Shown here: positions 3,368 to 33,711 of the stretch, piece after piece
How the letters are laid out: every line of letters starts with the position of its first letter
Position numbering within the stretch: the stretch's first letter is position 1
Program-made: the position numbers and the translations under genes
NCBI GenBank assembly: GCA_045589295.1
Contig: JAZNOU010000012.1
Coordinates: 165,353-229,352 of the forward strand
DNA length: 64,000 bases
Direction of reading: 5' to 3'
Source of the DNA: Clostridia bacterium
GTDB taxonomy: Bacteria; Bacillota; Clostridia; RGIG6154
Notes under the pieces: model-generated
The model's input: only the letters and a program-made list of their open reading frames with translations
The model's database searches: none
What the model was told of the DNA's origin: nothing

Positions 3368-3371
3368 GATT

Positions 3372-3485: not shown

Positions 3486-3499
3486 AAAAATTAGTATTT

Positions 3500-3558: not shown

Positions 3559-4104
3559 ATGAAAAAGAAAAATTTAAGAAAACTTACAGTTATGGGACTT
3601 TTGTGTGCGGTGTCTGTGATTTTGGTGTCAATTATTCACTTTCCACTTTTTGCGGCAGCACCATTTTTAGAGTATGATCCGGCAGATGTTCCGATATTTA
3701 TCGCAACATTTTCGTTTGGTCCTGTGGCAGGGTTTTTGGTTACTATAGTAACTTCTGTTATTCAAGGAACAACTGTCAGTGCATCAAGCGGACTTTACGG
3801 AATTTTAATGCACATAATTTCAACAGGAAGCTTTTGCCTTGTGTCAGGGGTTACATATAAAAAGTTTCACACAAAAAAGGGCGCTGCGATTTCACTTGTT
3901 ATAGGAACACTTGCTATGACGCTTGTTATGATTCCTGCCAATCTATTTATAACACCGTATTTTATGGGTGCACCTGTTTCTGTTATAAAGGGGTTACTTT
4001 TGCCCGTAATTATTCCTTTTAACTTTATTAAGGCGGCTGTAAACTCTGTTATAACATTTTTGCTTTACAAAAGAATTGCAAGACTGTGGGAAAATAAAGA
4101 ATAA
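3559..4104 (+). CDS. ribU: ECF-type riboflavin transporter S component (RibU-like)
   Basis: The 181-aa product has 5-6 TM helices and sits immediately downstream of the FMN riboswitch, the conserved Firmicutes arrangement. Confidence 0.75.
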   Translation: MKKKNLRKLTVMGLLCAVSVILVSIIHFPLFAAAPFLEYDPADVPIFIATFSFGPVAGFLVTIVTSVIQGTTVSASSGLYGILMHIISTGSFCLVSGVTYKKFHTKKGAAISLVIGTLAMTLVMIPANLFITPYFMGAPVSVIKGLLLPVIIPFNFIKAAVNSVITFLLYKRIARLWENKE

Positions 4105-7552: not shown

Positions 7553-7615
7553 TATCTTACGTAGGTATAACTGTGGATTTTTTTGTGTACCAATCAATTT
7601 TTGGAAGGTGAACAG

Positions 7616-7879
7616 ATGCGACTAAAAGATGGCTTTTTATTAAGAAATGTTGCCGGTGAATATGTTGTTGTCCCAACAGGGAACAGCATGGTTGACTTTA
7701 AGGCTATGATATCTCTTAATGAAACAGGCGCGTTTTTATGGGAGCAGCTTTTAGCAGACAAATCAGAGCAGCAACTTTTAGATGCGCTTTTGAGTGAGTA
7801 TGACGTTGATGAAAAAACCGCATCTGAAGATATTAAAGAGTTTGTAGAGTTGCTTAAAGAAAAGAACCTGTTGGTATGA
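7616..7879 (+). CDS. PqqD family protein (RiPP recognition element, lasso B1-like)
   Basis: The 87-aa product has the PqqD/RRE fold signature (MRLKDGFLLRNVAGEYVVVP...LNETGAFLWEQL...). A ribosome-binding site AAGGTG lies 5 nt upstream of the ATG, and the gene overlaps the next by ATGA. Confidence 0.8.
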   Translation: MRLKDGFLLRNVAGEYVVVPTGNSMVDFKAMISLNETGAFLWEQLLADKSEQQLLDALLSEYDVDEKTASEDIKEFVELLKEKNLLV

Positions 7880-8328
7880 ATATGAAAAAAGTCTTAAGTA
7901 CAAAAGAGATTATGCCTCTTGTGGGAGACATCTTAAAAACGGCGGAGCGAGTTAGGTTTACCGTTAAGGGAAACAGTATGTATCCGCTTTTAAGGTCGGA
8001 CCGCGACGAGGTAGAGGTTATAAAGTGCGATAGTATAGGCAAGTATGATATTGTTCTTTACAAAAGAAACAATGGTGACTATATTCTTCACAGGGTGCTC
8101 AAAGAAAATGACAACGCACTTTCAATAGCAGGCGATTTTGAACAGGAACTTGAAAGCCCTGTGTATAAAGATCAGGTTATTGCAAAAGTTGTCAATATAA
8201 TAAGAGACGGTAAAAAAGTTATCTCTTGTAACAACGGCATCTATAAAACGTATTGTGTTTTGTGGGCGGCGGTATTTAAAAACAGACGAAGGATACTTAA
8301 AATACTTAAGAAACTGAGGAAATGGTGA
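7876..8328 (+). CDS. S26/S24-type serine peptidase, Ser/His (SipW/ER-type-like), no TM anchor
   Basis: It has a GNSMYPLL nucleophile box and an IVLYK...YILHRVL box, with His where bacterial signal peptidase I (SPase I) has Lys. There is no N-terminal hydrophobic anchor, and the C-terminus is an amphipathic basic tail. Confidence 0.6.
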   Translation: MNMKKVLSTKEIMPLVGDILKTAERVRFTVKGNSMYPLLRSDRDEVEVIKCDSIGKYDIVLYKRNNGDYILHRVLKENDNALSIAGDFEQELESPVYKDQVIAKVVNIIRDGKKVISCNNGIYKTYCVLWAAVFKNRRRILKILKKLRKW

Positions 8329-9998
8329 AATTGAAAAATAAAGATATCGCTAAACAATGGTTTTTTAAGAATATCAGACAGGTTTTTGGCGGAGTTTTTG
8401 CTCTTACTTTTGTTTCTGTCCTGATTAATGTGTCAGGTGTCGGATTTGCGATTTCTTCAAAACGTGTTTTGGATGTAGCATCTAATTCAACTGAAGGGAA
8501 CTTATTAACAGAAGCTTTAGTTTTGTTTTCTTTGGTTGTGATTCAGCTTATTTTGCAAATTATCCTCTCTAAGTGCTATGTTAAAACGCAGGCACAAACG
8601 AGAATTAAAATAAAAACCGACTTGTTTGAAAGCATAGTGAAAAAAGATTTAACTGAGGTGAATTTTTATCACTCGGGTGAGTTGGTTAACAGGCTCACAA
8701 GCGACGTTAACGTTGTGTCAAACGCGGTGGTGGATATTTTACCAACTGCGATAGCACTTAGCATTGGGGTTTGTTTAAGCTTTGGGGTATTGTTCAGTTT
8801 GGACCCTGTTTATGCAGTTATTTATCTGATAGTTGCACCCCTTGCACTTTTAACTGCAAGATTTTTTAGAAAAAGGCTTAAAGTGTTACATAAAGAGTCG
8901 GTTTCAACCGACGGGATTGTTAAATCGTTTATGCAGGAATGTTTCAGAAATCTGCTCGTGGTCAAGGCTTTTGAAAAAGAAGATCACGTAACCGAAAAGT
9001 GTAATGCTTATCAACTTGCTAACTACAAGGTTTTGATAAAGAAAAACGATATCAGCATTTTAGCGAACGTAATGTTCTTTTTGTCCATTACTGCAGGCTA
9101 TTATTTAACTCTTATTTGGGGGGCATACAAGCTTTCGATAGGAATTTTAACAATCGGTGAAATTGTTGCAATGCTTGAACTTGTTTCACAAATTCAGTCC
9201 CCGCTAAAGTCATTATCATCACTTCTTCCGCAGTATTATTCGGCGGTAGCTTCATCTGAAAGAATTTTGGAGCTTGAAGATTTGCCTGATGAAAAACAAC
9301 TAAATGCAAGCAGTGAAAAAGTTGATGACTTTTCAAAGCTTGTCATTGACAATATGTCTTTTTCGTATGATGAAAGTTTAATTTTTGATAAAGCTTCCTG
9401 CGAAATTGAAAAAGGCGACATCGTCGGAATTTACGGCGAGTCGGGAATTGGAAAAAGCACACTTATAAAACTTATTTTAGGAGTGCTTAAGCCCAATAAG
9501 GGCGAGATTTACATAGTTGACCCGAGCGGTCAAAAGATTTTGGTTGATACAGAAACTAAAAACCTGTTTTCTTATGTGCCTCAAGGTAACCTGATATTAT
9601 CTGGCACAATAGCAGAAAACGTGGTTTTCGGTTCTGACAACATAGATATAAAGCTGGTTGAACGTTGCATCAAAGTGTCGCAGCTTGATGAAATGGTCAG
9701 TCAGTTGCCACTAAAACTTGATACAGGTTTGGGTGAAGGCGGCCTAGGTCTTTCTGAAGGACAGGTACAGCGATTATCTATCGCAAGGGCATTGTATCGG
9801 AATTCTGAAATACTGTTGCTTGATGAAGCAACGTCGGCTCTTGACCGAGAAACCGAAATCAGGGTGTTGGAGGAAATGAAGAGTTTGAATAAGACTTGTC
9901 TTTTCATAACTCACCGCAAAGAAGCACTTTTAAGTTGCAGCAAGCTTTTAAGTGTGAAAAACGGAAAGATTTCCATCGACAGGCAGGAAATTTTATAA
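8322..9998 (+). CDS. ABC transporter, fused permease/ATP-binding exporter
   Basis: The 558-aa product has six TM helices followed by a nucleotide-binding domain with Walker A (GESGIGKST), an LSEGQVQRLSIARAL signature and Walker B (LLLDEATSALD). Confidence 0.85.
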   Translation: MVKLKNKDIAKQWFFKNIRQVFGGVFALTFVSVLINVSGVGFAISSKRVLDVASNSTEGNLLTEALVLFSLVVIQLILQIILSKCYVKTQAQTRIKIKTDLFESIVKKDLTEVNFYHSGELVNRLTSDVNVVSNAVVDILPTAIALSIGVCLSFGVLFSLDPVYAVIYLIVAPLALLTARFFRKRLKVLHKESVSTDGIVKSFMQECFRNLLVVKAFEKEDHVTEKCNAYQLANYKVLIKKNDISILANVMFFLSITAGYYLTLIWGAYKLSIGILTIGEIVAMLELVSQIQSPLKSLSSLLPQYYSAVASSERILELEDLPDEKQLNASSEKVDDFSKLVIDNMSFSYDESLIFDKASCEIEKGDIVGIYGESGIGKSTLIKLILGVLKPNKGEIYIVDPSGQKILVDTETKNLFSYVPQGNLILSGTIAENVVFGSDNIDIKLVERCIKVSQLDEMVSQLPLKLDTGLGEGGLGLSEGQVQRLSIARALYRNSEILLLDEATSALDRETEIRVLEEMKSLNKTCLFITHRKEALLSCSKLLSVKNGKISIDRQEIL

Positions 9999-10020
9999 AG
10001 TTTGTTTGGGAGGAATAAAG

Positions 10021-10977
10021 ATGAAATGTAAGAGAATTATCAAAGTAGTAAGTGCGCTTGCATTAACTGTAGCTTTGTTAGTATCTGCTAGTGTTGTTTC
10101 ATTTGCTGCAACATATACAACACAGACAACATACATTAATGAAGATACTATTGAAGTTATTTCAAGAGCTACAGGCTTAAACGATGGCGAAATGGCTACT
10201 TATGTTGCTTACAGAAACGGCGAGTTCTCAGAAACTAATGCAGTTTACATCGACCAGGCAACAGAGCAGGACAATGCAGTTGAATTTAGATATCAGGCAG
10301 ATTCTGATGATGTAAAAGCAACAGTATTGTTCGGCGGTGAAAGCGCACCGAATACATTGGAGCCGGATAAAGTTGGTCATAAAATTACAGTATATGTTAA
10401 CGAAGTGGCTCAAGGCGACCAAGTTGCTGCTTATGCTGTAGCTGACTATGACGGCGAATATCTCGCAAGAGAATTTTCGGTAAACATTGAAAACGGAAAA
10501 GCTATTAAAAAAGTTGAATTCGCAGCTGATGGAGCTGAAAAAACAACTGTAGAAGCTTGGTATGTTAAAAATGGCGCGTTGGTTGTATTAAGCCGTGTTA
10601 TTGAATCAGATGGTTCATTGTACATTACAGCAGAGGATGCAACCATTTCTGTTAAACTTGGTGCTGTTACTGGTACTGAAAACACAATTACTGCATTTGC
10701 CAAAGCAGTTTGCACAGATGATGCAGACTACGGAATCTTAATTGCGGACTCAGAAGTTGAAATCGAAGCTGCTGGTCGTATTGACTGGAAAGATGCTGAA
10801 GACTACACAACTCCGGTTTATTTCAATGCTTTAGGCAAAGGTAACAATGGTGTATTTGCAGTAGAAGTAACTGATGAAGACTGCTTTGTTGCAGGTAAAA
10901 GCTTTAATGTAAAAGCTTATGCTGATTCTGGAGAGACAGAAGTGTATTCAATTGATACTGTAACTGTAAGATTATAA
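10021..10977 (+). CDS. secreted acidic beta-rich protein with signal peptide (possible cognate of the adjacent peptidase)
   Basis: An ATG at 10021 follows a GGGAGG ribosome-binding site. The signal peptide ends at ...SFA/ATYTT. The protein has no recognisable enzymatic motifs. Confidence 0.55.
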   Translation: MKCKRIIKVVSALALTVALLVSASVVSFAATYTTQTTYINEDTIEVISRATGLNDGEMATYVAYRNGEFSETNAVYIDQATEQDNAVEFRYQADSDDVKATVLFGGESAPNTLEPDKVGHKITVYVNEVAQGDQVAAYAVADYDGEYLAREFSVNIENGKAIKKVEFAADGAEKTTVEAWYVKNGALVVLSRVIESDGSLYITAEDATISVKLGAVTGTENTITAFAKAVCTDDADYGILIADSEVEIEAAGRIDWKDAEDYTTPVYFNALGKGNNGVFAVEVTDEDCFVAGKSFNVKAYADSGETEVYSIDTVTVRL

Positions 10978-11024
10978 GAGCGACTGTATCATTTAACGAT
11001 ACAAATTCAGGAGGAGAATTTACT

Positions 11025-11186
11025 ATGAAAAATTATCAAAAACCTGTTTTAGAGGTTGTTGAATTAGCAGTTGCTGAAAATATCGCTGCATTAGTGCCGA
11101 AAACTATCTATAAAAGATCAGTTGGCAAGAAGATGGCTCAGGACACCAGAATAATGCTTGTAGAAGATTTAAGTAATCTTAGCTAA
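11025..11186 (+). CDS. 53-aa peptide with lasso-precursor-like leader motif (candidate RiPP precursor)
   Basis: Translation is MKNYQKPVLEVVELAVAENIAALVPKTIYKRSVGKKMAQDTRIMLVEDLSNLS. An AGGAGG ribosome-binding site lies 10 nt upstream, and the ORF sits between the exporter operon and the kinase gene. The ORF track missed it because it is under 60 aa. Confidence 0.5.
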   Translation: MKNYQKPVLEVVELAVAENIAALVPKTIYKRSVGKKMAQDTRIMLVEDLSNLS

Positions 11187-11235
11187 TTTTAGCACTGCAA
11201 ATTAAATAAAAATTTGAGAGGATGTTTACTTTAAT

Positions 11236-12111
11236 ATGCAATATACTGTCGCAGGTTTTAATATTGATGTTGTCAGTGAACATCCTTCTTATCTTTTTAT
11301 GAGACTCAAAGACTATGAAAGCACTTTTTCGGGGGAAGCAGACTTTACAGTCAGGTGTAAAGAAGAAAAAAATATCGCTCTCCCCGATGATATTGTGCTT
11401 ATAGGTCAAAGAGTCGGAAGATGGATATGGTTTGAAAAAAAAGATGGTACGCTCGGTGCGTACATAAAATATGACGATGTCGAAAACATTGCGGCATTGG
11501 CATTGTGGGATAAAGCTTTTAAAAATATTGAATTATCTGTTTATGATATTGAGCCATACGGCAATTTGCCAATAGCTCAAAGAATTTTTTATTTACTGGG
11601 AGATGTTATTGCATACTCGGTATTAAACTGCGGTGCAGGAGTTTTCCATTCTTCTGCGATAAGTTATAAAGGAAACGGGATTTTATTTTCCGCACCATCG
11701 GGAACAGGAAAATCCACACATACATCTTTATGGAAAGATGTTTTTGGTGATAATGTTGTTATATTTAATGACGATACACCAATACTTAAGATAGAAAATG
11801 ACGTTTGTTTTGCCTACGGCTCACCTTGGAGCGGCAAAACTGCGATTAATGAAAATATAAAGGTTCCGCTTAAGGCGATTGTATGCCTTGACAGAGCGCA
11901 GACCAATTCAATAAAAAGACTTACGGGGATTAGTGCTTTTTACAGAATTTTCAATGAAATGAGAAAGCCTCCGGTTGAGAGTCTTATGGACAAGAGTCTT
12001 ACGGTTATGGATAGTATTTTGCAGAAAGTTCCGGTTTACGAGCTTTTTTGCAATAAAAATAAAGATGCAGTAATGACAGTTTTTGACGCTGTCGGTTTTG
12101 ACAAATTATAA
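11236..12111 (+). CDS. HPr kinase/phosphorylase-related kinase (HprK C-terminal-like P-loop)
   Basis: The segment GILFSAPSGTGKSTHTSLW...VVIFNDDTPIL matches the HprK P-loop and aspartate-pair architecture. The N-terminal 130 aa are unrelated to authentic HprK. Confidence 0.6.
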   Translation: MQYTVAGFNIDVVSEHPSYLFMRLKDYESTFSGEADFTVRCKEEKNIALPDDIVLIGQRVGRWIWFEKKDGTLGAYIKYDDVENIAALALWDKAFKNIELSVYDIEPYGNLPIAQRIFYLLGDVIAYSVLNCGAGVFHSSAISYKGNGILFSAPSGTGKSTHTSLWKDVFGDNVVIFNDDTPILKIENDVCFAYGSPWSGKTAINENIKVPLKAIVCLDRAQTNSIKRLTGISAFYRIFNEMRKPPVESLMDKSLTVMDSILQKVPVYELFCNKNKDAVMTVFDAVGFDKL

Positions 12112-12125
12112 GAGAGGTAAAAAGG

Positions 12126-13736
12126 ATGAATAAAAAAATATTTTTTGGTACACTTTTGTGTATGGTTTTATGTTTAAGCATTGCGACATGCGCATTTGCC
12201 GCAACATTTTCTGATTTATCAAAAAGCCACTGGGCGTACGATAATATTGTCGAATTAAGTTCACAGGGGGTTATAAACGGATACTCTGACGGTACATTTC
12301 GCCCCGAAGCATATGTTACGAGAGCTGAATTTGTTAAGCTTATAGGTACAATCGATACAATCAAAAATGGTGACTTTGACGACCTACCTAAAACTCACTG
12401 GGCATATGAATACGTTATGAAATCAGGGGTTGATGTTGACAGAAAGAACTTTCGCCCTGATGAAAATATCACAAGAGCAGAAGTTTTAGATATATTGTGG
12501 AACAGATATGGAACTGAAACAGATGCAAAAGTTCCCGGAATTATAGAAAATCAGCACAAAAATGTTCCGGCTGTTACCTGGGGATATTCTTACGGACTTA
12601 TGATAGGCGATGACGGAATAAATTTAAGACTTAGTGATGATTTGTCAAGAGCAGAAGCGGTTACACTTATTTTGCGCTCCAGAAAGATTGATACATCAAA
12701 GCAAAAGTTGCTTGCAGACAATGTAAACAGCAAGATTTTGGAAAATATTTTTAATGATACAATGCTTTTTGATAAACCTTACAGTGAAAATGAAACAGTT
12801 ACAGTTGGCGAAATTTCACACGCAGCTTTAAGACTTGCATATCAAACAAAGCAAATTCCATATAACAAGGATTTGTATATCGGCGATCCACAATTTGATG
12901 GTGATTATGCACTTGATATTGCTCACATGGCAAAACAAGTATTTGGTGAAGCTTCAAACAACAAAGAGTTTGCAGAAGGCAAGGCAAATCAACAGCAGGT
13001 TTTGGCAGCACTTATGTATGGTTATATGTTTAAAGCAAACGACTCGCCTGTAATCGGCAGAATGGATGATTACTACAAAGATGCAGTTGTTGCAAAAGGT
13101 CTTACAATGCAAAATATGTTACTTACATACACTAACAGACGCGGCATTTTTGCAAGCGCTGACGGACTTTTGCATAATGACAAAGCTGTAACACATAAAG
13201 AAATTGCATCAATTCTTTTGCAACTTGATAACTTTACAGGTTCACAAATAAGCTATTCAAACGGCAAAGAATCGGATGAAAAATTAAGCACAGATGCTTA
13301 TATTTACGAAAATGCAGATGATGGATTTGGAATTTTATTAAAAGGCATTCCAAACGTAGTTTACGAGACACCAATGAAAGCTCCTGCTAAAGAGTTTACA
13401 GTTTTTGCAAGAGATTTCTTTGAAATATTTACTACTCTTTCAGATGGCATTAAGGCAAAAGCCAAAAGCGAGGGCGCTGAAATTGTTTTAAGAGTTTATC
13501 CAACACTTATTGCAAATGCAGGCAATGAAGTTATTATGAGAACAAAGATATATGTAGCTTCAAATCCAAAAGGCTTAAATCTTGGTGAAATTATCGGTAA
13601 GTGCGATATGAATACAGATATTAAAGCCTTGGAAGGTAAAACGTATTTTGTTGATATTTCAACCAATCATCCATTGGATGACATGTACATCAATCCTGAA
13701 AATGTAAGCTTAAAACAGCTTATATGGAATGATTAA
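12126..13736 (+). CDS. SLH-domain cell-surface protein
   Basis: A signal peptide is followed by three S-layer-homology repeats (FSDLSKSHWAYDNIVEL...TRAEFVKLI and others) and an unassigned C-terminal domain. Confidence 0.7.
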   Translation: MNKKIFFGTLLCMVLCLSIATCAFAATFSDLSKSHWAYDNIVELSSQGVINGYSDGTFRPEAYVTRAEFVKLIGTIDTIKNGDFDDLPKTHWAYEYVMKSGVDVDRKNFRPDENITRAEVLDILWNRYGTETDAKVPGIIENQHKNVPAVTWGYSYGLMIGDDGINLRLSDDLSRAEAVTLILRSRKIDTSKQKLLADNVNSKILENIFNDTMLFDKPYSENETVTVGEISHAALRLAYQTKQIPYNKDLYIGDPQFDGDYALDIAHMAKQVFGEASNNKEFAEGKANQQQVLAALMYGYMFKANDSPVIGRMDDYYKDAVVAKGLTMQNMLLTYTNRRGIFASADGLLHNDKAVTHKEIASILLQLDNFTGSQISYSNGKESDEKLSTDAYIYENADDGFGILLKGIPNVVYETPMKAPAKEFTVFARDFFEIFTTLSDGIKAKAKSEGAEIVLRVYPTLIANAGNEVIMRTKIYVASNPKGLNLGEIIGKCDMNTDIKALEGKTYFVDISTNHPLDDMYINPENVSLKQLIWND

Positions 13737-13766
13737 TCTGGTTTAATTTACATGGAGGAAAAATAA

Positions 13767-14459
13767 ATGGAAGAAAGAGAAATTGATATCTGGGGACTAA
13801 TACAGTCAATAATTAAGAGATGGTGGATTGTTGCTATTATCACTGTTATAGTCGGAACAACAGGTTTTACATATTCAAAATTTGCAATCACTCCTTTGTA
13901 TGCGGCAAAAGGAACACTTTATATTACCGTAGACAATACTGCCTCCTTGCAAGGTGGAACAAGTCTTGATTACAACTCAATTTTGGCGGCACAGGAGCTT
14001 ACAAAAACATATTCTTTAATACTTTCAAGTAATACATTCTACAGAATTGTTGCTGCAGAAAGCGGACTTGACTACAGCTATAAAGAAATTTCAAGAATGG
14101 TTACAATGGGCAACGAAAATGACAGTGAAATTATGTCGATTACAGCAAAATGTGCAAATAGAGAACACGCAGCTATTATTGTTGAAACTATACTTAACAA
14201 TGCACAGGCAGAAATTTCAAGAGTGGTTATTGGCGGAAGTGTAAGAATTATTGACCATCCTGAACTTCCTAACGGACACTCATATCCTAACGTAACAAAG
14301 AACACATTCTTATGCTTGGCGCTTGGTGTTATCTTAGGTTGTGCTCTTGCAATTTTCATTGAATGGCTTGATGATACAATCAAGAGTGATGAGGATGTGC
14401 TGAAGTTTGGCATCCCGATATTAGCAGTTATCCCGCTTTTAGAAACAAAAAGCGAGTAA
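13767..14459 (+). CDS. Wzz/CpsC/YwqC-family polysaccharide chain-length (tyrosine-kinase modulator) protein
   Basis: It has two TM helices, a periplasmic-type loop and a C-terminal DDTIKSDEDVLKFGIPILAVIP segment typical of CapA/YwqC. No cognate BY-kinase gene follows. Confidence 0.8.
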   Translation: MEEREIDIWGLIQSIIKRWWIVAIITVIVGTTGFTYSKFAITPLYAAKGTLYITVDNTASLQGGTSLDYNSILAAQELTKTYSLILSSNTFYRIVAAESGLDYSYKEISRMVTMGNENDSEIMSITAKCANREHAAIIVETILNNAQAEISRVVIGGSVRIIDHPELPNGHSYPNVTKNTFLCLALGVILGCALAIFIEWLDDTIKSDEDVLKFGIPILAVIPLLETKSE

Positions 14460-14487
14460 AAAAAGACAGTAAAATTTTTCAGAAAGG

Positions 14488-17400
14488 GTGAGAGAAGATA
14501 TGAGAAAGCGTGTAAAATCGCTTATTGGCATGATTATTGCAATGACTATGATCTTGCCGACGGCTTTGCCGGTGACAACTCCTGTTTCGGCACAAAATTC
14601 CTACGGATTTAATGATTTTCCTACCGGATGGTCAGCACCTGCAATGTCACATGCAGTTGAAAACGGATTGATATACGGAAAATCCGAAGACCGTATATGT
14701 CCTACAGATAATTTAACTAGAGCGGAAATGGCTACAATCATTAACCGTGCATTCGGTGCTACGGTGGAAAAGGATATTTCGGCATTTTCAGATGTAGCTC
14801 AGTCAGCTTGGTATTACAATGAAATAAAAAAGGCATACAATATGCAAACCCTTTATGGTGATGCAGGCGGCACTATGCGTCCCGATGCCTTTATTATAAG
14901 AGAAGAAGCCATAGCGATTGTTGCAAGAGCTATGGTTTTAAGTGGTTATTCGGCTTCTAATCTTGATAAGTTTAATGATAAAGACCAAATTGCAGATTGG
15001 GCAGTAGATCCGCTGGCTTCAATGGTAGCAAACGGCTACGTTAACGGCGATGAAAAGTCTAATATGAATCCGAAGGCATTCATTACCAGAGAAGAATTTG
15101 CTCAGCTTTTACATAATATTGTTAAGCATTATTATGATGCTGAAGATGGCGTAACAACATTCAACGGGAATGTTATGATTAATGAACCGACCACTTCATT
15201 GAGTGATTTGGTTGTTAATGGCGATCTTATTTTGGGTGATGGTGTTGGAACAAGCAACATTGTTCTAAAAAATGTTAAAGTAACAGGTCGTATCCTTATC
15301 AGAGGCGCAACCCATATTTCGTTTAAAAACAGCAACTTTGGTGGCGGCGTTACAGTTAAAAATGTTAATGATGTGGTACATTTTGATCATTTTAGTGATG
15401 AAGTGCATTTTAATGATATGCAAGATCACACAGAGGTCACATTTAAGAAGAAAACTACCGGCGGTGGCGGTGGTGGAACTCCTCCGGCACCTACAACTGC
15501 TAGTTATAAAGTGGAACACTATCAGGAAGCTTTGGATGGAAGTTTTGCAGTTTTTGAAACAGAAACCCTTTCAGGCAGTATTGGTGCAAGTGTTACAGCA
15601 GTAGCTAAAACCTATACAGGTTTTAGCGAAGATACTGTAAATCCATCAAGAGTTGCAACAGGCACTGTTGTATCTGATGGTTCTTTGACTCTTAAGCTTT
15701 TTTACACAAGAAACAGTTATACAGTAACATTTGATGCTCGCGGCGGTGCTATTTCAGGCACACCGAAAACTGTTTATAAATTCGGTGAAACATTAGAACT
15801 CCCTGTACCTACAAAAGGAACAGACACATTTGGCGGGTGGTGGACAGCGCTAAATGGAACAGGAACAAAAATTGAAAATACAAGCGTATTGGGAACAGAT
15901 ATTACATCTGCTGCCATTACTGTTTATGCGCATTGGATACCTGCAGCTCCGACTCCCACAGCTACGACGTTTACAGTAAAACATTTGTTTGAAAAACTTG
16001 ACGGAACTTATGAAACTAAAGCAGAACGCGGAGATGAACTTAACGTTGCCGGTGATATAACGGTTTCAATCGTTCCTGAAAATTACAGAAATCCGATTGC
16101 GGGATTTAATTATTTTGATTATAGCTTTGACGGAACAGACAATGCAGGCATGCCAAAAGCAGATGGAAGCACTGTTCTTAATATCCGTTATAATAGAAAG
16201 AGCTACGACATCGTATATAACTATGGTGAAGCAGGCGGAAGCAACACAGTTTCATTTAGATATGGTGAAAGTGTAGATCTTTCAATTCCGACAGTTACAC
16301 CACCTGTAGGTAAGTATTTTGCAGGTTGGTATGATGCACTTGTTGGCGGCACACAGGTAACATTCCTTGAAACACCTGTTGGCGGAACAACAATTTATGC
16401 ACGTTGGGCAGAAGATGTTGGAGTTTATACTGTTGAATTCTATCAGCAGAATTTGGATGGAACTTACACCCAAGTAACTGCGGACACTTTATCAGGACTT
16501 ACTGGTGTAGTAGGAACAGATGTAAGTGTGGATAAAAATTCGACCACAATCAAAGATAAGTATATAGGTTTTGAAGTTAATGAAACAGAAAGTACACTCA
16601 CACAAAGACTTGCTAAAACAGGCACAGTACTTAAAGTTTATTATGACAGAAAGATTTATACAATCGATTACGACTTTGATGGCGGTTATGCAGATGGAAC
16701 ATATACTGATACATTTATGTATGGCCAAACCGTTGCGCTTGCCAAAGGTAAAAATAGCAATGGCAAGGTTTTAGGCGGTTGGTTTACCGATTTAGATGGT
16801 AATGGCACACAGGTAACAGATACTGCAAATATTGATGCTATCTTAGGCGCGCTCACAGGCAATACAATCACACTTTATGCTTATTGGGTAGAAGAAATAG
16901 GCGAATATTCTGTTGAATTCTATCAGGAAACTTTAGATGGTGCTGATTATACTCTTGTTGCAGCTGACACTATTGTCGGTCTTACAGGAACAGTCGGCGA
17001 GAAAGTAGCTATTGATGCAACAATAGATGAAGTTAAGAATAAATATTCAGGCTTTACAGTAAACGTTGCAAAGAGTGAACTTTCAAAAACACTTGCTAAA
17101 GAGGGCACAGTTCTTAAAGTTTACTACGACAGAAATATTTATACCTTGTATTACAATTATAGCGATGCTGATACTGTGGGAATTGGAAGTGCGACCTTTA
17201 AACATGGTCAGAATATCACATTCCCTGATGAATCAACATTCAATAAAGAATCATTTAGCTTTGCAGGCTGGTACACAACCCAGGACTTTAAAGATGATGA
17301 AGTTGTAGATACAGGCAATACAATCGAACAGATTATAGACATTGCAAATGGTGAAACAGAAACTACCATATATGCTAAATGGGCAAAATTCTTCACAGTA

Positions 17401-20400
17401 ACATTCAGAGAGGGTGCAAAAATAGGAACGTACACAGTTGATCCTGCTGTTGAAAACACAGTTCCGTATTCTGCATTCCCTTACGACAAACTTGTTGAAC
17501 GTTATAAGACAGGTTACTTTGAAGATGAATCTGTATCTTCTGTATACGCAGGTAATGAGTATAAACACACATTTGAAGGACAGTGGTACTACACAGATGA
17601 AAACGGCAACGATGTCGTATTTACAGACGAAACAATTGTAGACCGCGATCTTACAGTAAGATATAAATTCAGATATGTGAGACTGGAACTTTTTGTTGAG
17701 AAATTAGGTCATAACCTTGTACTTGAGGTGCCTTTTGAAGAAAGTACAAGAATTATCGACACAATTAAAGATGAATTGTTTGTAAATCAGGAAAAAATAC
17801 TTTTGGTTGCAGATGAAGTTGATGCAAGAAGCAAGTTTATGGCGTTGAACCTTAAGTTGGTTAACTTCCTTGACAGTAAGGGAATTGAAATAGTTGAACC
17901 TGGTATGATTTTCGCCGAAGATGGCGAAATCTTAAAGCAACATATCAGATTTAATGCATTTGCATATCTTGATGAAGCAAGTGTTAAGACTGTTGTTGTA
18001 AACGCAATCAGAACAACATTCAAAAATGATCCTTTAAGAATGCGTGGCGTTATCGATGAAATGATGACAGAACAGGATGAAGACGTTGTTAACCTTATGG
18101 ATACAATGCTTGTATCTATGCTTTCAGGTTCAGATGCTGCAAGAATCAAGGGTATTATTGCAGATGCGGTGGAAGATGCGGTTGCAAATGATACAACCGG
18201 TGAGTTCAAAAACAAAATTAAAGACATCATAACAACACAGCTTGATGCAGGTAATACAACAGTTGAAACAAGCATTAAAAAGGCAATTAAAGATTACTTT
18301 ATGAACAGCGCAAATGATGCTAAAATCAGAGAAATCGTTTCAGACCTTATTGATGATGCTTATAAAACTGATGATGAAACCGATCCGGTAAGGAATTTCG
18401 TGAAGAGTTACATAAAGACATATCTTAACGAAAACCCAACAGTTTTAGATGATATGATCAGAGAAATGGGCGAAAATTTAGATCCTAATGATCCTAACGA
18501 TGCGCACATTATTGATCTTATTCATGAAGTTTTAGACGAAAATGTAATATATCTTGAAAAACTTGTTGATGATGCTATCAAGAACCTTAAAAACACAATA
18601 GGCGAACCAATACACAGCTTTATCGTTGATGCCATCACAACAGAGCTTTCAACTAATGCTGCTGAGCTTGATATTTTGATTGATGAAATCTCAAATGCAA
18701 ACGTAACTGATATTAAGTCGGTGCTTGCAACAGTTATGGAAGATAACGATACATTTGAAATTATTGTTAAAGATGCAATTGCCGATGAAGCGGTATTTAA
18801 TAAGGTTATCAAAGCTGCTCTTGACAACGCAAGTGTATTTGATGCAATCGTAAGCGAACTTTGCAGCGGCGATACGAGCTTCTATAATATGCTTGTAGAC
18901 ATTGCACTTTCGTCAGATTCACTTAAGGGCGAGGTTAAAAATGCAGTTGTTAATAATGATGATGCACTTATAAGCGTACTTAATGAAGTGGCATCTGATG
19001 CTTCACTTAAAGCTGAAATGGTTGAAGAAATTTTAGTTGCTTCTGATGCTAAGCTTAAAGATCAGCTTACAAGCCCGCTTTCTATAACATCGGATTATTA
19101 TGCAGACGTTAAAGCTCAGGCACTCAGTCAGGCTGAAACTGAAATAATAGGCATAATCGAAACAGGTATCAATGAAGATGAACACCCAGATTACTGGCCG
19201 ATTGCTTTTGAAAAGGCTATGGAAATAGCAGAAGCAAGAGTTAGACAGGATCTTATTGCTGGCAGTGTTGATCCTAACGGTTCACTTTGGGATACAATGT
19301 ATGCAGAGGCAATGGCTCAAGCAGCAATTGATGTCAAAGCAGAGCTTAACGGAGGTATTACTGATGCTTCAGAATACTACGCAGCTGCTGTAAATGGTGC
19401 TAAAGAGCAGGCAGAAAAAGAAATTACAGACTTACTTTCAACAGGTATTACTGAGGGTAGCAAGTACTGGGATGTTGCATATAGTACTGCAAAAGGAATT
19501 CTTAGAACCGAAATTGACACATCATTCGATTCAAAGATTGTAGAAATCAAGACAGATGCTAATCTTAAAGCACAGGTGGTAGCTTGGGCACAGACAGCGA
19601 TTAATAACACTAATATAGAAAGTGCTATTAAGAACTATGCTAAAGGCTTGGCTACAAGCACAGACTCTGCGGATGTTAGCCTTAGAACATCAATTATTGA
19701 CACTGTAATCAATACAGCAGATAGCTTAGAACCAGGTAAAAAAGAGACATTGGTTAGTGATATTATCACAGAGCTTTTGAAACCTGCAAATGCAACAGTT
19801 AAAGAGACTGTTGAAAACAAGGCTATTGAAGTATTAAACAGAGCTGAAAACAATGCACTTAAAACTACGCTTATCGATAGTGTGCTTGAAGATATCTTTG
19901 CTGACAACACACTTAAAGGCGATTTGATTGCAAGACTTAAGACTAAGGTTAAGGACCCTGCACAGGAAGCATTTAAGTTAACTGTTATTAGCGAAGCTAT
20001 CAATGCAGTTGTTAATGATAGCTCAGTTAATGCAAGGGCAGTTATAATAATAAATGACCTGATTGAAACAGATACTGCATTTAAGGCAGACATTATAGAG
20101 CACATCGTCGACTATATCTTAGAAGATGCTACTGTTAGAGCTGAAGCTATGGAAAAGGTTGTCGAAATGATTGAAGATCCGGAAGATGACAGCCATAAGC
20201 AGGAAGCAATCGACTTTGCGTTTGACACCCTTAAGGGCGACACAACGAAACGTGCAGAAATTGTGGATAAGTTCTTAACAAACATCTTAGGTAATAATGA
20301 CAAGAGAGAAGATATGGCAACAGAAGTTATCGACATTATGTTCTCTAACGATACCTTAAGAAATAGGATTTTAGATCTTGGGTTCGAACAGATGTTCGCA

Positions 20401-21714
20401 GGTGAAGATACAATTGCAGAAATTGTTTCACTTGCACTCGACGAACTCATTAGTGACGATACCGTAAGACGTGATATGATTATTGCAGTAATCAGCACTG
20501 AAAGCGGAAGAAGAAAGATTTTAGACATTCTCTTTGATGAACTTGAAAGGGATCCTGAGTTCATTGACGAAATAGTTGACATCGCAATGAACGGCAAGTA
20601 TGGCGATTTGGTTGATATATTTGTATCCGACCTTATTTACAACGGAAAGATTCAGATTAATCCAGACAACAGACAAATCGCAGAAGAAATCGTTCTTCCA
20701 ATGTTAGACGACATTTCTCTTGATACTGTTTTAGGCAAATTGCCCGCAAAAGTTACAGATGTTTTACCAACATCTGTAATCGAAAAGGCGTTTAACAAGT
20801 TTAAGTCAAAAGCAAGAGAACTTTTGGTTGAAGGTATAAATGAAGCTAAAGAAGGCAACTGGAAAGACATTTCAGTTATGGTGGACAACGAGCTTGATAT
20901 AATTAATGAAGTTTTAGTTCCGCTTTATAATAAAGTATTCCCGAAAGTTGTTGACAAAGCTGAGGACTTCTACTACTACAACGAAAATGTTTACTTAAAA
21001 GCAATAGTTGACATGATTGACCCTGAGTTCTTGCTTGATAACACAAAACCGGCATCAATTGGTGGAACAGGATACAGATTAAGAACAACAGAAGAATATT
21101 ATGAAATTATCAGAAATATCTCTGTTTTAGTTGATGATGCAGCAAACTGGTATATGGAAAACATTTCTGATGACCAGATTAACGGTGCTATTGACAAAGT
21201 TGCAGGAAAAGTTAATACTTTACTTGCAAAGGTTAATGGACTTGTGGGCGGAAGAATACCAATGTCTAAGATTGACAAAGTGGTTGAATACACCAAGAAG
21301 GCTCTTGATAAGAGAGAAAGCGTTTATAATATTACAACAAATGGTGTATTTGAAAAGGTTGACAAGGTTTATAACAAGCTTATTGAAATTGTTAAAAACA
21401 AAACCGGTGTTGATATTACTAAGTCTACTACGATAGAAGTTACTTTTGACGGAAGTGAAATCGACGTAAACGGTAAGGATGTCAACATTGACAATCGTAA
21501 GATAAGCATCAGTGTTAAAGGTTACAAATTTGAACTTGATTCAGAATCAATCACAGCACTTAACAAAACTGTTAATATTGACAGATTTGTTCAAAAAGCT
21601 GCCGATTTATTCGGAACAAGAAGTGTAACATTTAAAATTATAAATGATGCTCCGTACAGCTACGGTGCTTATGTGGGCAATAACTACATAAAGTTAGCTG
21701 CTGAGTACAAATAA
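14488..21714 (+). CDS. giant (2408 aa) SLH-anchored surface protein with Listeria-Bacteroides-type repeat modules and long acidic helical C-terminal region
   Basis: A signal peptide and three SLH repeats are followed by a Gly6 linker. At least six Y-x-V-x-F...GWY/W repeat modules come next, and then an about 1,300-aa D/E-rich low-complexity region. Confidence 0.85.
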   Translation: MREDMRKRVKSLIGMIIAMTMILPTALPVTTPVSAQNSYGFNDFPTGWSAPAMSHAVENGLIYGKSEDRICPTDNLTRAEMATIINRAFGATVEKDISAFSDVAQSAWYYNEIKKAYNMQTLYGDAGGTMRPDAFIIREEAIAIVARAMVLSGYSASNLDKFNDKDQIADWAVDPLASMVANGYVNGDEKSNMNPKAFITREEFAQLLHNIVKHYYDAEDGVTTFNGNVMINEPTTSLSDLVVNGDLILGDGVGTSNIVLKNVKVTGRILIRGATHISFKNSNFGGGVTVKNVNDVVHFDHFSDEVHFNDMQDHTEVTFKKKTTGGGGGGTPPAPTTASYKVEHYQEALDGSFAVFETETLSGSIGASVTAVAKTYTGFSEDTVNPSRVATGTVVSDGSLTLKLFYTRNSYTVTFDARGGAISGTPKTVYKFGETLELPVPTKGTDTFGGWWTALNGTGTKIENTSVLGTDITSAAITVYAHWIPAAPTPTATTFTVKHLFEKLDGTYETKAERGDELNVAGDITVSIVPENYRNPIAGFNYFDYSFDGTDNAGMPKADGSTVLNIRYNRKSYDIVYNYGEAGGSNTVSFRYGESVDLSIPTVTPPVGKYFAGWYDALVGGTQVTFLETPVGGTTIYARWAEDVGVYTVEFYQQNLDGTYTQVTADTLSGLTGVVGTDVSVDKNSTTIKDKYIGFEVNETESTLTQRLAKTGTVLKVYYDRKIYTIDYDFDGGYADGTYTDTFMYGQTVALAKGKNSNGKVLGGWFTDLDGNGTQVTDTANIDAILGALTGNTITLYAYWVEEIGEYSVEFYQETLDGADYTLVAADTIVGLTGTVGEKVAIDATIDEVKNKYSGFTVNVAKSELSKTLAKEGTVLKVYYDRNIYTLYYNYSDADTVGIGSATFKHGQNITFPDESTFNKESFSFAGWYTTQDFKDDEVVDTGNTIEQIIDIANGETETTIYAKWAKFFTVTFREGAKIGTYTVDPAVENTVPYSAFPYDKLVERYKTGYFEDESVSSVYAGNEYKHTFEGQWYYTDENGNDVVFTDETIVDRDLTVRYKFRYVRLELFVEKLGHNLVLEVPFEESTRIIDTIKDELFVNQEKILLVADEVDARSKFMALNLKLVNFLDSKGIEIVEPGMIFAEDGEILKQHIRFNAFAYLDEASVKTVVVNAIRTTFKNDPLRMRGVIDEMMTEQDEDVVNLMDTMLVSMLSGSDAARIKGIIADAVEDAVANDTTGEFKNKIKDIITTQLDAGNTTVETSIKKAIKDYFMNSANDAKIREIVSDLIDDAYKTDDETDPVRNFVKSYIKTYLNENPTVLDDMIREMGENLDPNDPNDAHIIDLIHEVLDENVIYLEKLVDDAIKNLKNTIGEPIHSFIVDAITTELSTNAAELDILIDEISNANVTDIKSVLATVMEDNDTFEIIVKDAIADEAVFNKVIKAALDNASVFDAIVSELCSGDTSFYNMLVDIALSSDSLKGEVKNAVVNNDDALISVLNEVASDASLKAEMVEEILVASDAKLKDQLTSPLSITSDYYADVKAQALSQAETEIIGIIETGINEDEHPDYWPIAFEKAMEIAEARVRQDLIAGSVDPNGSLWDTMYAEAMAQAAIDVKAELNGGITDASEYYAAAVNGAKEQAEKEITDLLSTGITEGSKYWDVAYSTAKGILRTEIDTSFDSKIVEIKTDANLKAQVVAWAQTAINNTNIESAIKNYAKGLATSTDSADVSLRTSIIDTVINTADSLEPGKKETLVSDIITELLKPANATVKETVENKAIEVLNRAENNALKTTLIDSVLEDIFADNTLKGDLIARLKTKVKDPAQEAFKLTVISEAINAVVNDSSVNARAVIIINDLIETDTAFKADIIEHIVDYILEDATVRAEAMEKVVEMIEDPEDDSHKQEAIDFAFDTLKGDTTKRAEIVDKFLTNILGNNDKREDMATEVIDIMFSNDTLRNRILDLGFEQMFAGEDTIAEIVSLALDELISDDTVRRDMIIAVISTESGRRKILDILFDELERDPEFIDEIVDIAMNGKYGDLVDIFVSDLIYNGKIQINPDNRQIAEEIVLPMLDDISLDTVLGKLPAKVTDVLPTSVIEKAFNKFKSKARELLVEGINEAKEGNWKDISVMVDNELDIINEVLVPLYNKVFPKVVDKAEDFYYYNENVYLKAIVDMIDPEFLLDNTKPASIGGTGYRLRTTEEYYEIIRNISVLVDDAANWYMENISDDQINGAIDKVAGKVNTLLAKVNGLVGGRIPMSKIDKVVEYTKKALDKRESVYNITTNGVFEKVDKVYNKLIEIVKNKTGVDITKSTTIEVTFDGSEIDVNGKDVNIDNRKISISVKGYKFELDSESITALNKTVNIDRFVQKAADLFGTRSVTFKIINDAPYSYGAYVGNNYIKLAAEYK

Positions 21715-21721
21715 TTAATGG

Positions 21722-21756
21722 TCAGCGGGTAAACAGTATAAGTTTACCCGCTTGAT
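21722..21756 (+). terminator. putative intrinsic terminator
   Basis: A GCGGGTAAAC...GTTTACCCGC 10-bp stem lies directly after the giant ORF stop. The T-tract is weak. Confidence 0.45.
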
Positions 21757-21779
21757 TAAAAAAGAGAGGATGATACATT

Positions 21780-23345
21780 TTGAAAAAAGCATTATGTCTT
21801 GTTTTAGCTTTAATGTTATGTCTTCCATCTGTGGTTGCTTTTGCAGACATAGAAGGAACTGTACAGGGCGATATAATGCTCACTTCAACAGAGGGCGAAG
21901 CTTTGCCTGAGGATAAAGAAACTGCAACTGAAACATCAGATGCGCTTAAGTTCAGCGATATTATTGCAGATTCGGTTCTTGGTGAGGCTGTATACAAGCT
22001 TGTTGATGCAAAGGTGATATCGGGGTATCCTGATGGCACATTCAGACCTGATTCAGGGGTGACTCGTGCCGAACTTTGTAAAATGATAAATCTGGTTTAT
22101 GATTTAGATGTAAAAGCGACAAGTATGTCTTTTAAAGATGTAACAGAAGAAGACTGGTATTATGATTACGTTTTGGTTGCGGTCCAGGCGGGATATATTA
22201 AAGGCTTTACAGATAACACATTCAGAGGGGACGACCCTGTTACAAGAGAACAGGCGTGTGCTATTATAAACAGAGTAACAACAGCAAAAGGTGCAAGTCT
22301 TTTTGACTTACCTTTTACAGATAACATAACAGATGCTGTGTCAGATTGGGCATTGGAAGATGTTAAAAAAATTATTGCAAACTATGTAATGCCTTTGGAA
22401 GCAGGCGGTAAATTCCGTGCAACAGAGGATATTACAAGAGGCGAGCTTGCGCTTGCATTAGAAGGTTTTGTTGTTATAGTTCCTGAATATACAGTAACTT
22501 TTGAAACAAATGGAGGAAGTGAGATTGCTTCTGTTGTGGTTAAAGAGGGTAAAACAGTTGCAAAACCTGAAGATCCGAAAAAAGATAACTATACTTTCAA
22601 TGGTTGGTATACAGACAGTAAGCTTAAAACTGCTTATGATTTTGAAAAAACGGTTTCAGATAACATTACACTTTATGCAAAATGGCAGGCAAAAGTAACA
22701 GGCGGTGGCGGTGGAGGAGTTTATATTCCGCCTTCAGGTGGTACACCTTCATCGTACACAGTAACCTTTAATTCAAAAGGCGGCAGTGCAGTTGACAGCG
22801 TAACGGTTACATCGGGCGCAACAATTTCAGCACCTGCAGAGCCTACAAAAGAAATGAAAGTGTTTACAGGCTGGTATACAGACTCTGCTTGCACAAATCT
22901 TTTTGATTTTACAACTCCAATAACAGGCAATATTACGCTTTATGCGGGTTGGGAAGATGACCATGCGGCTATGAATGGTCAAAAAATATCCGACCTTACA
23001 ATATTTAAAGAGGCGTTGGTTGCTACTACATTTGACATTCAGCCTCATACAGACATGGCAAGCATAATTGTTTCCACGTTTGAAAGTGTGATTTCTGATG
23101 GTGAGTCCGGAATAATTCTTACAAATGACTATATTAAAACAACGTACGAAGCAAATATGCTCCAGATAAAAGATATTTGGGAGAATCAGCTGTTTGTAGA
23201 TACATTCTCAGACGAGCAACAGGATTTTAAAGATAAAATAGCGCTTGTTTTAACAGATGCACAAGCAAACGGCTATTCAATGTCACTTTCAGAAACTTAT
23301 GTATTGTTCAGAACAATAATAGGTGATTTTATAAATTGGGAATAA
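21780..23345 (+). CDS. SLH-domain surface protein with Flg_new (Listeria-Bacteroides) repeats
   Basis: It has a signal peptide, SLH repeats, two YTVTF...GWYTD repeat modules and Gly-rich linkers, making it a paralogue of the giant protein's N-terminal architecture. Confidence 0.8.
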   Translation: MKKALCLVLALMLCLPSVVAFADIEGTVQGDIMLTSTEGEALPEDKETATETSDALKFSDIIADSVLGEAVYKLVDAKVISGYPDGTFRPDSGVTRAELCKMINLVYDLDVKATSMSFKDVTEEDWYYDYVLVAVQAGYIKGFTDNTFRGDDPVTREQACAIINRVTTAKGASLFDLPFTDNITDAVSDWALEDVKKIIANYVMPLEAGGKFRATEDITRGELALALEGFVVIVPEYTVTFETNGGSEIASVVVKEGKTVAKPEDPKKDNYTFNGWYTDSKLKTAYDFEKTVSDNITLYAKWQAKVTGGGGGGVYIPPSGGTPSSYTVTFNSKGGSAVDSVTVTSGATISAPAEPTKEMKVFTGWYTDSACTNLFDFTTPITGNITLYAGWEDDHAAMNGQKISDLTIFKEALVATTFDIQPHTDMASIIVSTFESVISDGESGIILTNDYIKTTYEANMLQIKDIWENQLFVDTFSDEQQDFKDKIALVLTDAQANGYSMSLSETYVLFRTIIGDFINWE

Positions 23346-25809: not shown

Positions 25810-25814
25810 ATTGT

Positions 25815-26445
25815 TGTAAAATTGGGTGGTGCAGTATTCTAGTCAGATTTTTTCATTCCCAGGACGGGCCTAAAAATCCGTTGAAGGGCACATCGATGAA
25901 GTTTCTGGTGCGGGCTTTCGACGCCCAGTCGAGGGTTTGTGCTGGGAGTTAAGGATTAAGGGCGGTCGGCAATGGCATGCAGAATTCGACCCTTCTTCCG
26001 TGGAGACCTATACTTGTGCCGTATTGGCCGACTAGTCTGTGAAGACTCGGCTGAAAAGGTACGACTTAGGATTAAACCTGCGTTGCGGTCTTTTTTGGCT
26101 GTGCGCAGAGTAGCCTGCCTTGAGCGGTTGTGGTGGATTGCAAGATCAGGTTTTGTCTGGTTGGCCGACCGGACAAAACTATTGCTTCATGAAACCACAT
26201 TTGCAAAAGAGGCTAAGATTGATTAAATCTGTCGAGGAAATCTCCTAGACTGTTGGAAACAGATACGCAAAGGATTGAAGTGCGGACTAAGTGGCAATCG
26301 GGTACAAAGTTGAGCGATCGCTTTGGTCTTCTTTTAAAGGGAAACCGCTTACATCGGCGACGAGTGAGCAAGAAGGCGGGAAAGCCAACCCGACCTAAGC
26401 CGTAAATTTTACTTTGTGTATTACCCCTTAAATTTACATTTATTT
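25815..26445 (+). ncRNA. OLE (ornate large extremophilic) RNA candidate
   Basis: This is an about 600-nt GC-rich (about 50% against about 33% background) ORF-poor island with its own promoter. It sits immediately upstream of a 4-TM 21-kDa protein gene and dxs-tlyA-nadK-argR-recN, which is the published OLE/oapA synteny. Confidence 0.6.
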
Positions 26446-26459
26446 GGGAGAAATGATAA

Positions 26460-27029
26460 TTGAAAAAGAAAATTAGATTTAAACCGGGAAAGAAACAAAT
26501 AAGCATAAAATATATTTTTGTGATTTCTTTAATAACTCTTGCTATTGCCGTTTTAATGAAAGCAATAAGCGATGCTATTTTGGAAAATATTGTATTAACA
26601 TACAGCTATTTTATTCTGCTGGGAATAATTTTAATTGGTATTATATTTGACATAGTAGGCGTTGCGGTTACTTCAAGTGACGATACAAAATTTCACGCTA
26701 TGGCGGCAGACAAAGTGTATGGAGCAAAAGAAAGCATTATGCTTATAAAAAATGCGGAAAAAGTTTCCAGTATCTGCAATGACGTAATAGGTGATGTGTG
26801 TGGTATTGTAAGTGGAGCAGTGTCCTCTTGGGTTGTAGTGCAACTTGCAATGGGGGCACTAAAAGGCGAAGAAATTCTCGCTCTGGTTATGACAGGCGTT
26901 GTTTCGGCATTAACTGTAGGTGGCAAAGCTCTTGGTAAGTTTTTTGCACTTAATTACAATTGCAGTATTGTGTATATTGCGGGGAAAATAATACGATTTT
27001 TTAAGTTTTCCAAGAACTATAGGAGGTAG
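26460..27029 (+). CDS. oapA: OLE-associated protein A (OapA)-like small 4-TM membrane protein
   Basis: The 189-aa product has four predicted TM helices and a TTG start with a GGAG ribosome-binding site. Its position between the structured RNA and dxs is the assignment's main support. Confidence 0.6.
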   Translation: MKKKIRFKPGKKQISIKYIFVISLITLAIAVLMKAISDAILENIVLTYSYFILLGIILIGIIFDIVGVAVTSSDDTKFHAMAADKVYGAKESIMLIKNAEKVSSICNDVIGDVCGIVSGAVSSWVVVQLAMGALKGEEILALVMTGVVSALTVGGKALGKFFALNYNCSIVYIAGKIIRFFKFSKNYRR

Positions 27030-33658: not shown

Positions 33659-33711
33659 ACAAAGTACCTGCTTTGTGATACAATAGAGAAAAAGTGTTTC
33701 AGGAGTACGTT

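Follow-up and report, generated by a model that had tools for sequence, protein, structure and literature searches.

The 64,000-nucleotide stretch examined here (positions 165,353 to 229,352 of contig JAZNOU010000012.1, assembly GCA_045589295.1, Clostridia bacterium; hereafter the window) encodes on its plus strand a giant surface protein of 2404 residues. Our analysis showed that this protein joins a beta stalk of evolutionarily variable length to a helical cargo that is constant, folded, and conserved and that contains a new distal domain. Comparison with known proteins showed, in addition, the predicted features of a secreted, S-layer homology (SLH)-anchored protein with an N-terminal chassis like that of ChiW. 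In our interpretation, the giant is a fibril held at the cell surface by its SLH repeats, and its stalk would display a binding head or platform at the far end. This interpretation stands at about an even chance in our judgment, and we infer binding by the distal region from the architecture only.

The gene occupies an uninterrupted and intact open reading frame (ORF) on the plus strand (14488..21714), which opens with GTG and has 2408 codons, in agreement with the single large ORF of a preliminary description of the window. The likely start is the ATG at 14500, four codons after the GTG at 14488 and behind the ribosome-binding site aaagggtgagag, which gives a gene at 14500..21714 and a protein of 2404 aa; residue numbers here count from this ATG. 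The G+C content of the gene was similar to that of the flanking DNA. Three orthologues (P0001, P0002, and P0003) are colinear with it, and the protein of the window itself was absent from a collection of 5.8 billion proteins, in which the best match was 63% identical.

A putative Sec signal peptide (aa 1 to 31; 14500..14592, +), read from the sequence, begins with MRKRVKSL, continues with a hydrophobic core, and ends with VSA/Q after aa 31; N-termini of the same type were found across the family of the giant. The three SLH repeats that follow (aa ~36 to 205; 14605..15114, +), the predicted cell wall anchor, matched Pfam PF00395 in three stretches with 83.9 bits (cutoff, 20.8), carried the motifs TRAE, IREE, and TREE, and aligned with the SLH region of Sap in the PDB (3pyw; E = 9e-5). 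Next comes a short CBM-54-like right-handed beta-helix segment (aa ~212 to 316; 15133..15447, +), in which residues ~212 to 269 aligned over 58 residues with the CBM-54 beta-helix of ChiW (5gzt_A; E = 1.9e-7) and which was present in all 23 family members aligned. Both the three SLH repeats and the beta-helix-like segment had been proposed beforehand, and these matches uphold them. Only ~105 residues separate the third SLH repeat from the glycine linker, and a full CBM-54 beta-helix of ~236 aa and 12 coils was not found in the giant. Several Gly6 linkers had also been proposed; however, the protein has a single one, GGGGGGTPPAPTT (aa 321 to 333; 15460..15498, +), with its G6 at aa 321, in the position of the Gly-Ser loop of ChiW. 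Beyond this linker, the only run of glycines is the GGG at aa 281. The autocleavage motif of ChiW, G-G-G-X1-[NQDH]/S-[VI]-X4 (slash, cleavage point), is lost: the aligned site reads G-A-T-H-I-S-F-K, and a later GGG is followed by V-T-V-K.

Residues 336 to 963 (15505..17388, +) form a stalk of four modules of ~155 aa (aa 336 to 490, 491 to 642, 643 to 802, and 803 to 963), each of which consists of an unassigned beta half and then a Flg_new/InlB B-repeat. Flg_new, the Listeria-Bacteroides repeat, matched in four stretches with 77.5 bits (Pfam PF09479; cutoff, 27), and a stalk module aligned weakly with the InlB B-repeat structure 2y5p. Behind the modules stands a degenerate Flg_new-like cap domain (aa 964 to 1058; 17389..17673, +) with the pattern FFTVTF...GYF...WYY, which is kept in the family consensus and had no significant Pfam match. 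The preliminary description was thus right on the presence of Listeria-Bacteroides-type repeats, but its count of six or more gives way to four modules plus one degenerate copy. The number of modules was 1 in P0002, 4 in the window, and 18 in P0003, and the tail behind them measured ~1,350 to 1,430 aa throughout. Because the beta modules vary in number and the tail keeps its length, we regard the beta modules as the spacer and the tail as the cargo; the earlier suggestion of a stalk or spacer therefore applies to the module array and not to the tail. At the DNA level, the giant gene has neither tandem nor long direct repeats, and the gene of the 18-module orthologue has none of high identity, which indicates that module number changed by old divergence. 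Periscope-type dynamic repeats were rejected on the same grounds. In the 90%-identity cluster of P0002, both members read were 2007 aa long.

The tail (aa ~1060 to 2404; ~1,345 residues) consists of a junction, ~46 short helices, a Tyr-rich domain of ~280 residues, and a beta end of ~100 residues. The junction (aa 1059 to 1200; 17674..18099, +) is a conserved block that was 52 to 69% identical to orthologues, is present in the family consensus, and had no Pfam or PDB match. The acidic helical-repeat region (aa 1201 to 2018; 18100..20553, +) comprises ~44 short helices with a median length of 14 aa and a spacing of ~18 aa. An AlphaFold2 (AF2) model of 1200 tail residues, made from a three-sequence alignment, had a predicted local distance difference test score (pLDDT) of 51 and is unreliable in three dimensions; its secondary structure was consistent, with 46 helices (median, 14 aa), 80% helix over aa 1205 to 2048 (DSSP), a mixed region beyond the helices, and then a beta-rich end over the last ~100 residues. 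The similarity autocorrelation of the tail peaked at i+4 (z = 9.1), and the hydrophobic autocorrelation gave z values of 7.8 at i+4, -2.5 at i+7, and 4.0 at i+18. Peaks at i+4 and i+18 with none at i+7 indicate short amphipathic helices placed every ~18 residues and not heptad coiled coils. These results confirm the helical nature of the tail claimed earlier. A coiled-coil tail of the M-protein-like type was rejected, given the absence of heptads and the median helix length.

The helices are degenerate repeats. Profile self-alignment of aa 1205 to 2049 with hhalign aligned 676 columns off the diagonal (E = 2e-23) with a score of 190, whereas none of eight column-shuffled controls scored above 19. 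The repeats were visible only by such profile self-alignment and not by self-BLAST of the tail protein. Five long-helix repeats of ~31 aa with the pattern G-I-T-x-x-S-x-Y-[YW]-x-x-A lie within the region (aa 1523 to 1680; 19066..19539, +; z = 6.6 at an offset of 93 aa), and the copy number in orthologues ranges from 3 to at least 6. All Foldseek matches of the low-confidence tail model were HEAT/ARM solenoids (E = 7e-6 to 1e-3), at TM-scores of 0.10 to 0.17; in a profile search against PDB sequences the sole match was a CLASP TOG domain at a weak E value of 0.024, and Pfam gave no HEAT or ARM repeat match in the giant. From the periodicity, the self-alignment, and these matches together, we consider aa 1201 to 2018 a degenerate helical-repeat region with a putative solenoid-like fold, HEAT-like at low confidence. 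Separately, residues ~1250 to 1380 (~18247 to 18640) weakly resembled Pfam DUF445 (E = 0.0097), which two of 23 family members matched (best E = 1.3e-8). Membrane proteins of the UPF0754 type may be remotely related to the giant through their helical domain; as an assignment of the tail, the DUF445 similarity was set aside as unreliable.

The domain common to the whole family is the Tyr-rich core (aa 2019 to 2304; 20554..21411, +), which is distinct from the helical repeats and not merely a set of better-conserved copies. Among 80 sequences, N2163 (99%), G2191 (98%), Y2201 (95%), Y2192 (94%), and Y2200 (92%) were near-invariant, followed by P2141 (91%), Y2160 and Y2165 (90% each), D2213 (89%), and W2217 (82%). 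The AF2 model of the core from a 26-sequence alignment reached a pLDDT of 73.8. Neither a sequence match nor a fold match in the PDB was found for the core, and tblastn searches of plasmid and phage collections gave no match. The C-terminal beta-rich domain (aa 2305 to 2404; 21412..21711, +) was modeled by AF2 as beta strands at low confidence and is 51 to 78% identical in orthologues; the profile match extended to it in only ~15 of the 88 family matches. The tail as a whole had no Pfam or NCBIfam match above threshold and no sequence relative in the PDB, and the whole giant had no NCBIfam match and only SLH and Flg_new above noise in Pfam. The C-terminal region is therefore, as had been supposed, without a characterized counterpart.

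The family was revealed only by an exhaustive hidden Markov model (HMM) search of 1.84 billion representative proteins, which returned 88 relatives, 60 of them with E values below 1e-10; a word-indexed homologue search with the tail had found just two, P0001 (63% identity) and P0002 (40%), and a word-indexed search with the 26-sequence core alignment again gave only two. What the 88 relatives share is profile positions ~815 to 1065, corresponding to aa ~2019 to 2270 near the C terminus. Family members are 900 to 4636 aa long and have signal peptides. Among the 23 full-length members examined, SLH occurred in all and Flg_new in 15 to 16, with no other consistent Pfam domain, and their alignment keeps the whole design of SLH repeats, beta-helix segment, glycine linker, modules, cap, junction, helices, and core. 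P0002 (2007 aa) and P0003 (4636 aa) lie in loci perfectly syntenic with the window; the latter is NCBI MBQ2896936.1, "InlB B-repeat-containing protein [Clostridia bacterium]," from the metagenome-assembled genome (MAG) GCA_017409875.1. The MAG sets of the relatives are presumably ruminant-gut catalogues. Identities to P0002 and P0003, respectively, were 81% and 81% in the SLH repeats, 52% and 69% in the junction, 28% and 44% in the central helices, 53% and 72% in the core, and 51% and 78% in the beta end, and neighboring housekeeping proteins were 78 to 93% identical between these syntenic loci. Such fast divergence of the central helices would fit either surface exposure or loose constraint.

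The conserved Tyr, Asn, and Asp cluster of the core is compatible with a ligand pocket, as judged from residue conservation. The cargo might instead be an undescribed surface enzyme, for example, an all-alpha polysaccharide lyase or hydrolase on a chassis of the ChiW/Lic16A type, with Tyr, Asn, and Asp in its active site. The chassis is homologous to that of ChiW, whose cargo is catalytic; Y2160, N2163, Y2165, Y2192, Y2200, Y2201, and D2213 are near-invariant; the window has a GH26-like gene at another site; the relatives presumably stem from ruminant-gut MAG sets; and alpha/alpha polysaccharide lyases typically work by Tyr/Asn chemistry. However, no enzyme family in Pfam, NCBIfam, or the PDB matched the cargo, no PDB fold matched the core, which also lacks the conserved His, Arg, Glu, or Cys residues typical of known lyases and hydrolases, and the neighboring genes are not consistently carbohydrate-related. 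We consider an enzymatic cargo unlikely.

A second alternative takes the tail as a passive acidic spacer or stalk or as a cation-binding polyanion or, in a variant, as a structural part, with no specific ligand, of a layer or canopy that the giant would build on the surface together with the SLH partner encoded next to it. The acidity reported in the preliminary description is real: the net charge was -107 over aa 1181 to 2404, and the helical part, with a pI of 4.18, had the highest D+E content (20.2%) of 44 window proteins. The fast divergence of the central helices (28 to 44% identity), as loose constraint would predict, the clustering of three SLH genes, and the conserved pairing of giant and partner also speak for this view. 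Yet acidity is no peculiarity of the tail, since the stalk modules (pI 4.43) and secreted neighbors (pI 4.30 and 4.33) are nearly as acidic, and it thus marks the exported proteins of this organism more than the tail specifically and gives no specific sign of cation binding. Moreover, length varies in the beta-module array and not in the tail, the best-conserved blocks of the family, including the near-invariant aromatics, lie in the tail, and Pfam matched no Ca-binding or other cation-binding motif family. A passive tail is, in our estimate, as unlikely as an enzymatic one.

That the tail is disordered or of low complexity, as its bias to D, E, I, and V and its lack of database annotation might suggest, or that it stems from faulty assembly or annotation (a collapsed repeat or genes fused in error), is very improbable, because its entropy over 40 residues (3.54 to 3.68 bits) equals that of the globular parts (3.43 to 3.86 bits in the SLH and beta domains), the models are 80% helical in the repeats and of pLDDT 73.8 in the core, the gene has no DNA repeats, and colinear full-length orthologues with strongly conserved blocks and residues, the same C terminus, and the same neighbors exist in independent JGI, ENA, and NCBI assemblies. 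The low-complexity character given to the tail beforehand, and the collapsed repeat considered there, were accordingly not borne out. The minus-strand ORFs inside the gene had all been called Ser-rich shadows; this holds for five of the seven, which lie in one frame and contain 18 to 28% Ser, but not for the other two.

Under the favored interpretation of the giant as an anchored fibrillar protein, Sec export would be followed by noncovalent anchoring to the wall, the SLH triad presumably binding the secondary cell wall polymer. The Gly6 linker may act as a hinge between the beta-helix segment and the stalk, whose beta modules would project the cargo tens of nanometers from the wall. The helical array and the Tyr-rich domain would then form the head or platform that binds a ligand from outside, such as a polysaccharide, another cell, or proteins, with the co-encoded SLH partner as a possible ligand; the central helical surface may evolve fast owing to its exposure. 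Several points weigh against this interpretation. Pfam recognized no binding or adhesive domain in the giant, and the conserved Tyr, Asn, and Asp could equally line an active site. The whole-tail model is of low confidence (pLDDT 51), as is its HEAT-like character (TM-scores, 0.10 to 0.17). The C-terminal domain of the partner had no sequence relation to the tail that would hint at interaction. Patterns from the tail alignment or the N-terminal region found no relative in 185,579 species genomes, and the organism of the giant is known only from metagenomes.

In addition to the giant, we examined its genomic neighborhood. The partner gene (21780..23345, +) encodes a signal peptide, three SLH repeats, a glycine run, two Flg_new repeats, and a helical C-terminal domain of ~115 aa, and each of the nine independent loci sampled had a gene for an SLH protein of this kind immediately after that of the giant. 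Partners across loci had a glycine run, a varying number of Flg_new repeats, and the conserved helical C-terminal domain, which in the window (aa 394 to 521; 22959 to 23342, +) had no Pfam or PDB match. A partner-type domain also ends a second, further-downstream gene in two loci (L013, 17321 to 19621; L014, 13664 to 14647), and because of this recurrence the domain behaves as a mobile C-terminal module. A more speculative proposal is that uncultured gut Clostridia build from the giant and its always-adjacent partner an undescribed surface apparatus of two components, in which a ~900-residue extracellular HEAT-like alpha-solenoid on an adjustable stalk, with a Tyr-rich cap, would be a docking scaffold for proteins with partner-type C-terminal domains or for plant or host polymers. 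The logic would be similar to that of the cellulosome, with unrelated sequence. We rate this proposal slightly below the enzymatic and passive alternatives.

Directly upstream of the giant, the window encodes a Wzz-like protein with two transmembrane segments (13767..14459, +; Pfam Wzz and GNVR), which occurs only in the window's own lineage and was replaced by a different membrane protein in six of the nine loci. In these six distant loci, the gene directly upstream encodes an unannotated protein of 240 to 320 aa in which a low-complexity linker joins an N-terminal membrane helix to a helical, conserved C terminus (L009, 5837 to 6646; L010, 6145 to 6945; L011, 5372 to 6091; L012, 6188 to 6988; L013, 4194 to 4988; L014, 4027 to 4983). 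All six are homologues of one another (E = 1e-13 to 1e-75), and the window encodes no member of their family. The upstream membrane protein showed no relation to the tail of the giant. The cluster has a third SLH protein (536 aa; 12126..13736, +; Pfam SLH), which is syntenic in L001 and L005 (phmmer). The syntenic order is M23 peptidase, PqqD, ABC transporter, 53-aa ORF, ScmC-like protein, SLH protein, Wzz-like protein, giant, SLH and Flg_new protein, SecD, SecF, OLE RNA, and dxs. The short gaps between genes and the absence of a terminator-like site from 11236 to 23345 weakly suggest that the giant cluster is cotranscribed.

Other features of the region were also recorded. Genes at 7583 to 12111 (+) encode a PqqD-like protein, a 150-aa protein, an ABC exporter, a secreted acidic protein of 323 aa, the 53-aa ORF (11025 to 11186), and a 291-aa P-loop protein, an orthologue of which matched Pfam ScmC (PF27840). 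Synteny of this group extends to L001 and L005, and its makeup suggests a cassette for peptide modification or export. A literature search returned nothing relevant on ScmC or on giant SLH/Listeria-Bacteroides proteins. A full-length ornate large extremophilic (OLE) RNA (25810 to 26443, +; 513 bits) lies between secF and a 189-aa ORF (26460 to 27029), which had no Pfam match and stands at the expected position of oapA, followed by dxs, tlyA/ftsJ, nadK, argR, and recN. A flavin mononucleotide (FMN) riboswitch (3371 to 3487, +; 117.7 bits) precedes the gene of an energy-coupling factor S component of the riboflavin type (3559 to 4104). A 564-aa protein with a GH26-like domain (33694 to 35388, +; E = 1.8e-13) places glycan-active genes nearby on the chromosome. 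In three other loci, a Cys-rich protein of ~170 aa, 79 to 87% identical among them, is encoded two genes upstream of the giant (L012, 5573 to 6079; L013, 3505 to 4017; L014, 3426 to 3956).

If the favored interpretation holds, ~1,350 unannotated residues can be assigned to a defined and rare family of surface fibrils, anchored by SLH repeats and made by uncultured Clostridia, with an unusually long extracellular helical-repeat array, a dedicated partner gene, and a new conserved distal domain whose clear residue signature suits a new Pfam entry. Such proteins would be candidates for the attachment of these organisms to plant fiber, host surfaces, or other microbes, and the orthologues with 1, 4, and 18 modules would be a natural experiment on the tuning of stalk length. 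Current ideas are not overturned, as the design of anchor, stalk, and distal cargo is already well known, and Gram-positive genomes hold many giant proteins of this design with unannotated ends. As a surface protein, the giant varies a familiar theme; the variant is undescribed but not fundamentally new.

Finally, we compared the giant with known systems. Its low-confidence tail model (pLDDT 51) may resemble HEAT/ARM alpha-solenoids, such as importin-beta, CAND1, RRP12, and the CLASP TOG domains, in its tandem short antiparallel helices. These solenoids are overwhelmingly intracellular, whereas the giant is predicted to be extracellular and wall-anchored and lacks a Pfam HEAT/ARM match. Ebh and Embp, with FIVAR, GA, and DUF1542 repeats, are also giant acidic surface proteins with long helical repeats, but the likeness is an analogy only: the giant matched none of these three repeat families, its repeats are much shorter and more degenerate, and its anchor is of a different type. 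In the N-terminal part, the order, from the signal peptide onward, matches that of the cell-surface chitinase ChiW of Paenibacillus sp. FPU-7 (5GZT) and of SLH/CBM-54 cell-surface enzymes of the Lic16A type. ChiW runs from SLH through CBM-54, a Gly-Ser loop, and beta domains to its cargo, with the autocleavage motif G-G-G-X-[NQDH]/S-[VI] (PMC5132251). The giant differs in having a beta-helix of ~100 aa instead of 236 aa and 12 coils, in not keeping the motif, and in carrying an unannotated helical region in place of the GH18 or GH16 catalytic domains. The fibrillar adhesins of the Monzon/Bateman class are long anchored proteins with a stalk of a variable number of repeats and a distal adhesive region, and Flg_new is a stalk domain in fibrillar-adhesin-like proteins (PMC9210967). 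The giant shares with them the long anchored chain, the variable beta-repeat stalk, and the unannotated distal end. It differs in its N-terminal SLH triad in place of a C-terminal LPXTG anchor, in having no known adhesive domain in Pfam, and in a distal part that, at ~1,345 mostly alpha-helical residues, is far larger than usual adhesive tips. Our reading of the giant as a fibrillar surface protein fits this logic of anchor, stalk, and distal region, with Flg_new as a known stalk domain (PMC9210967).

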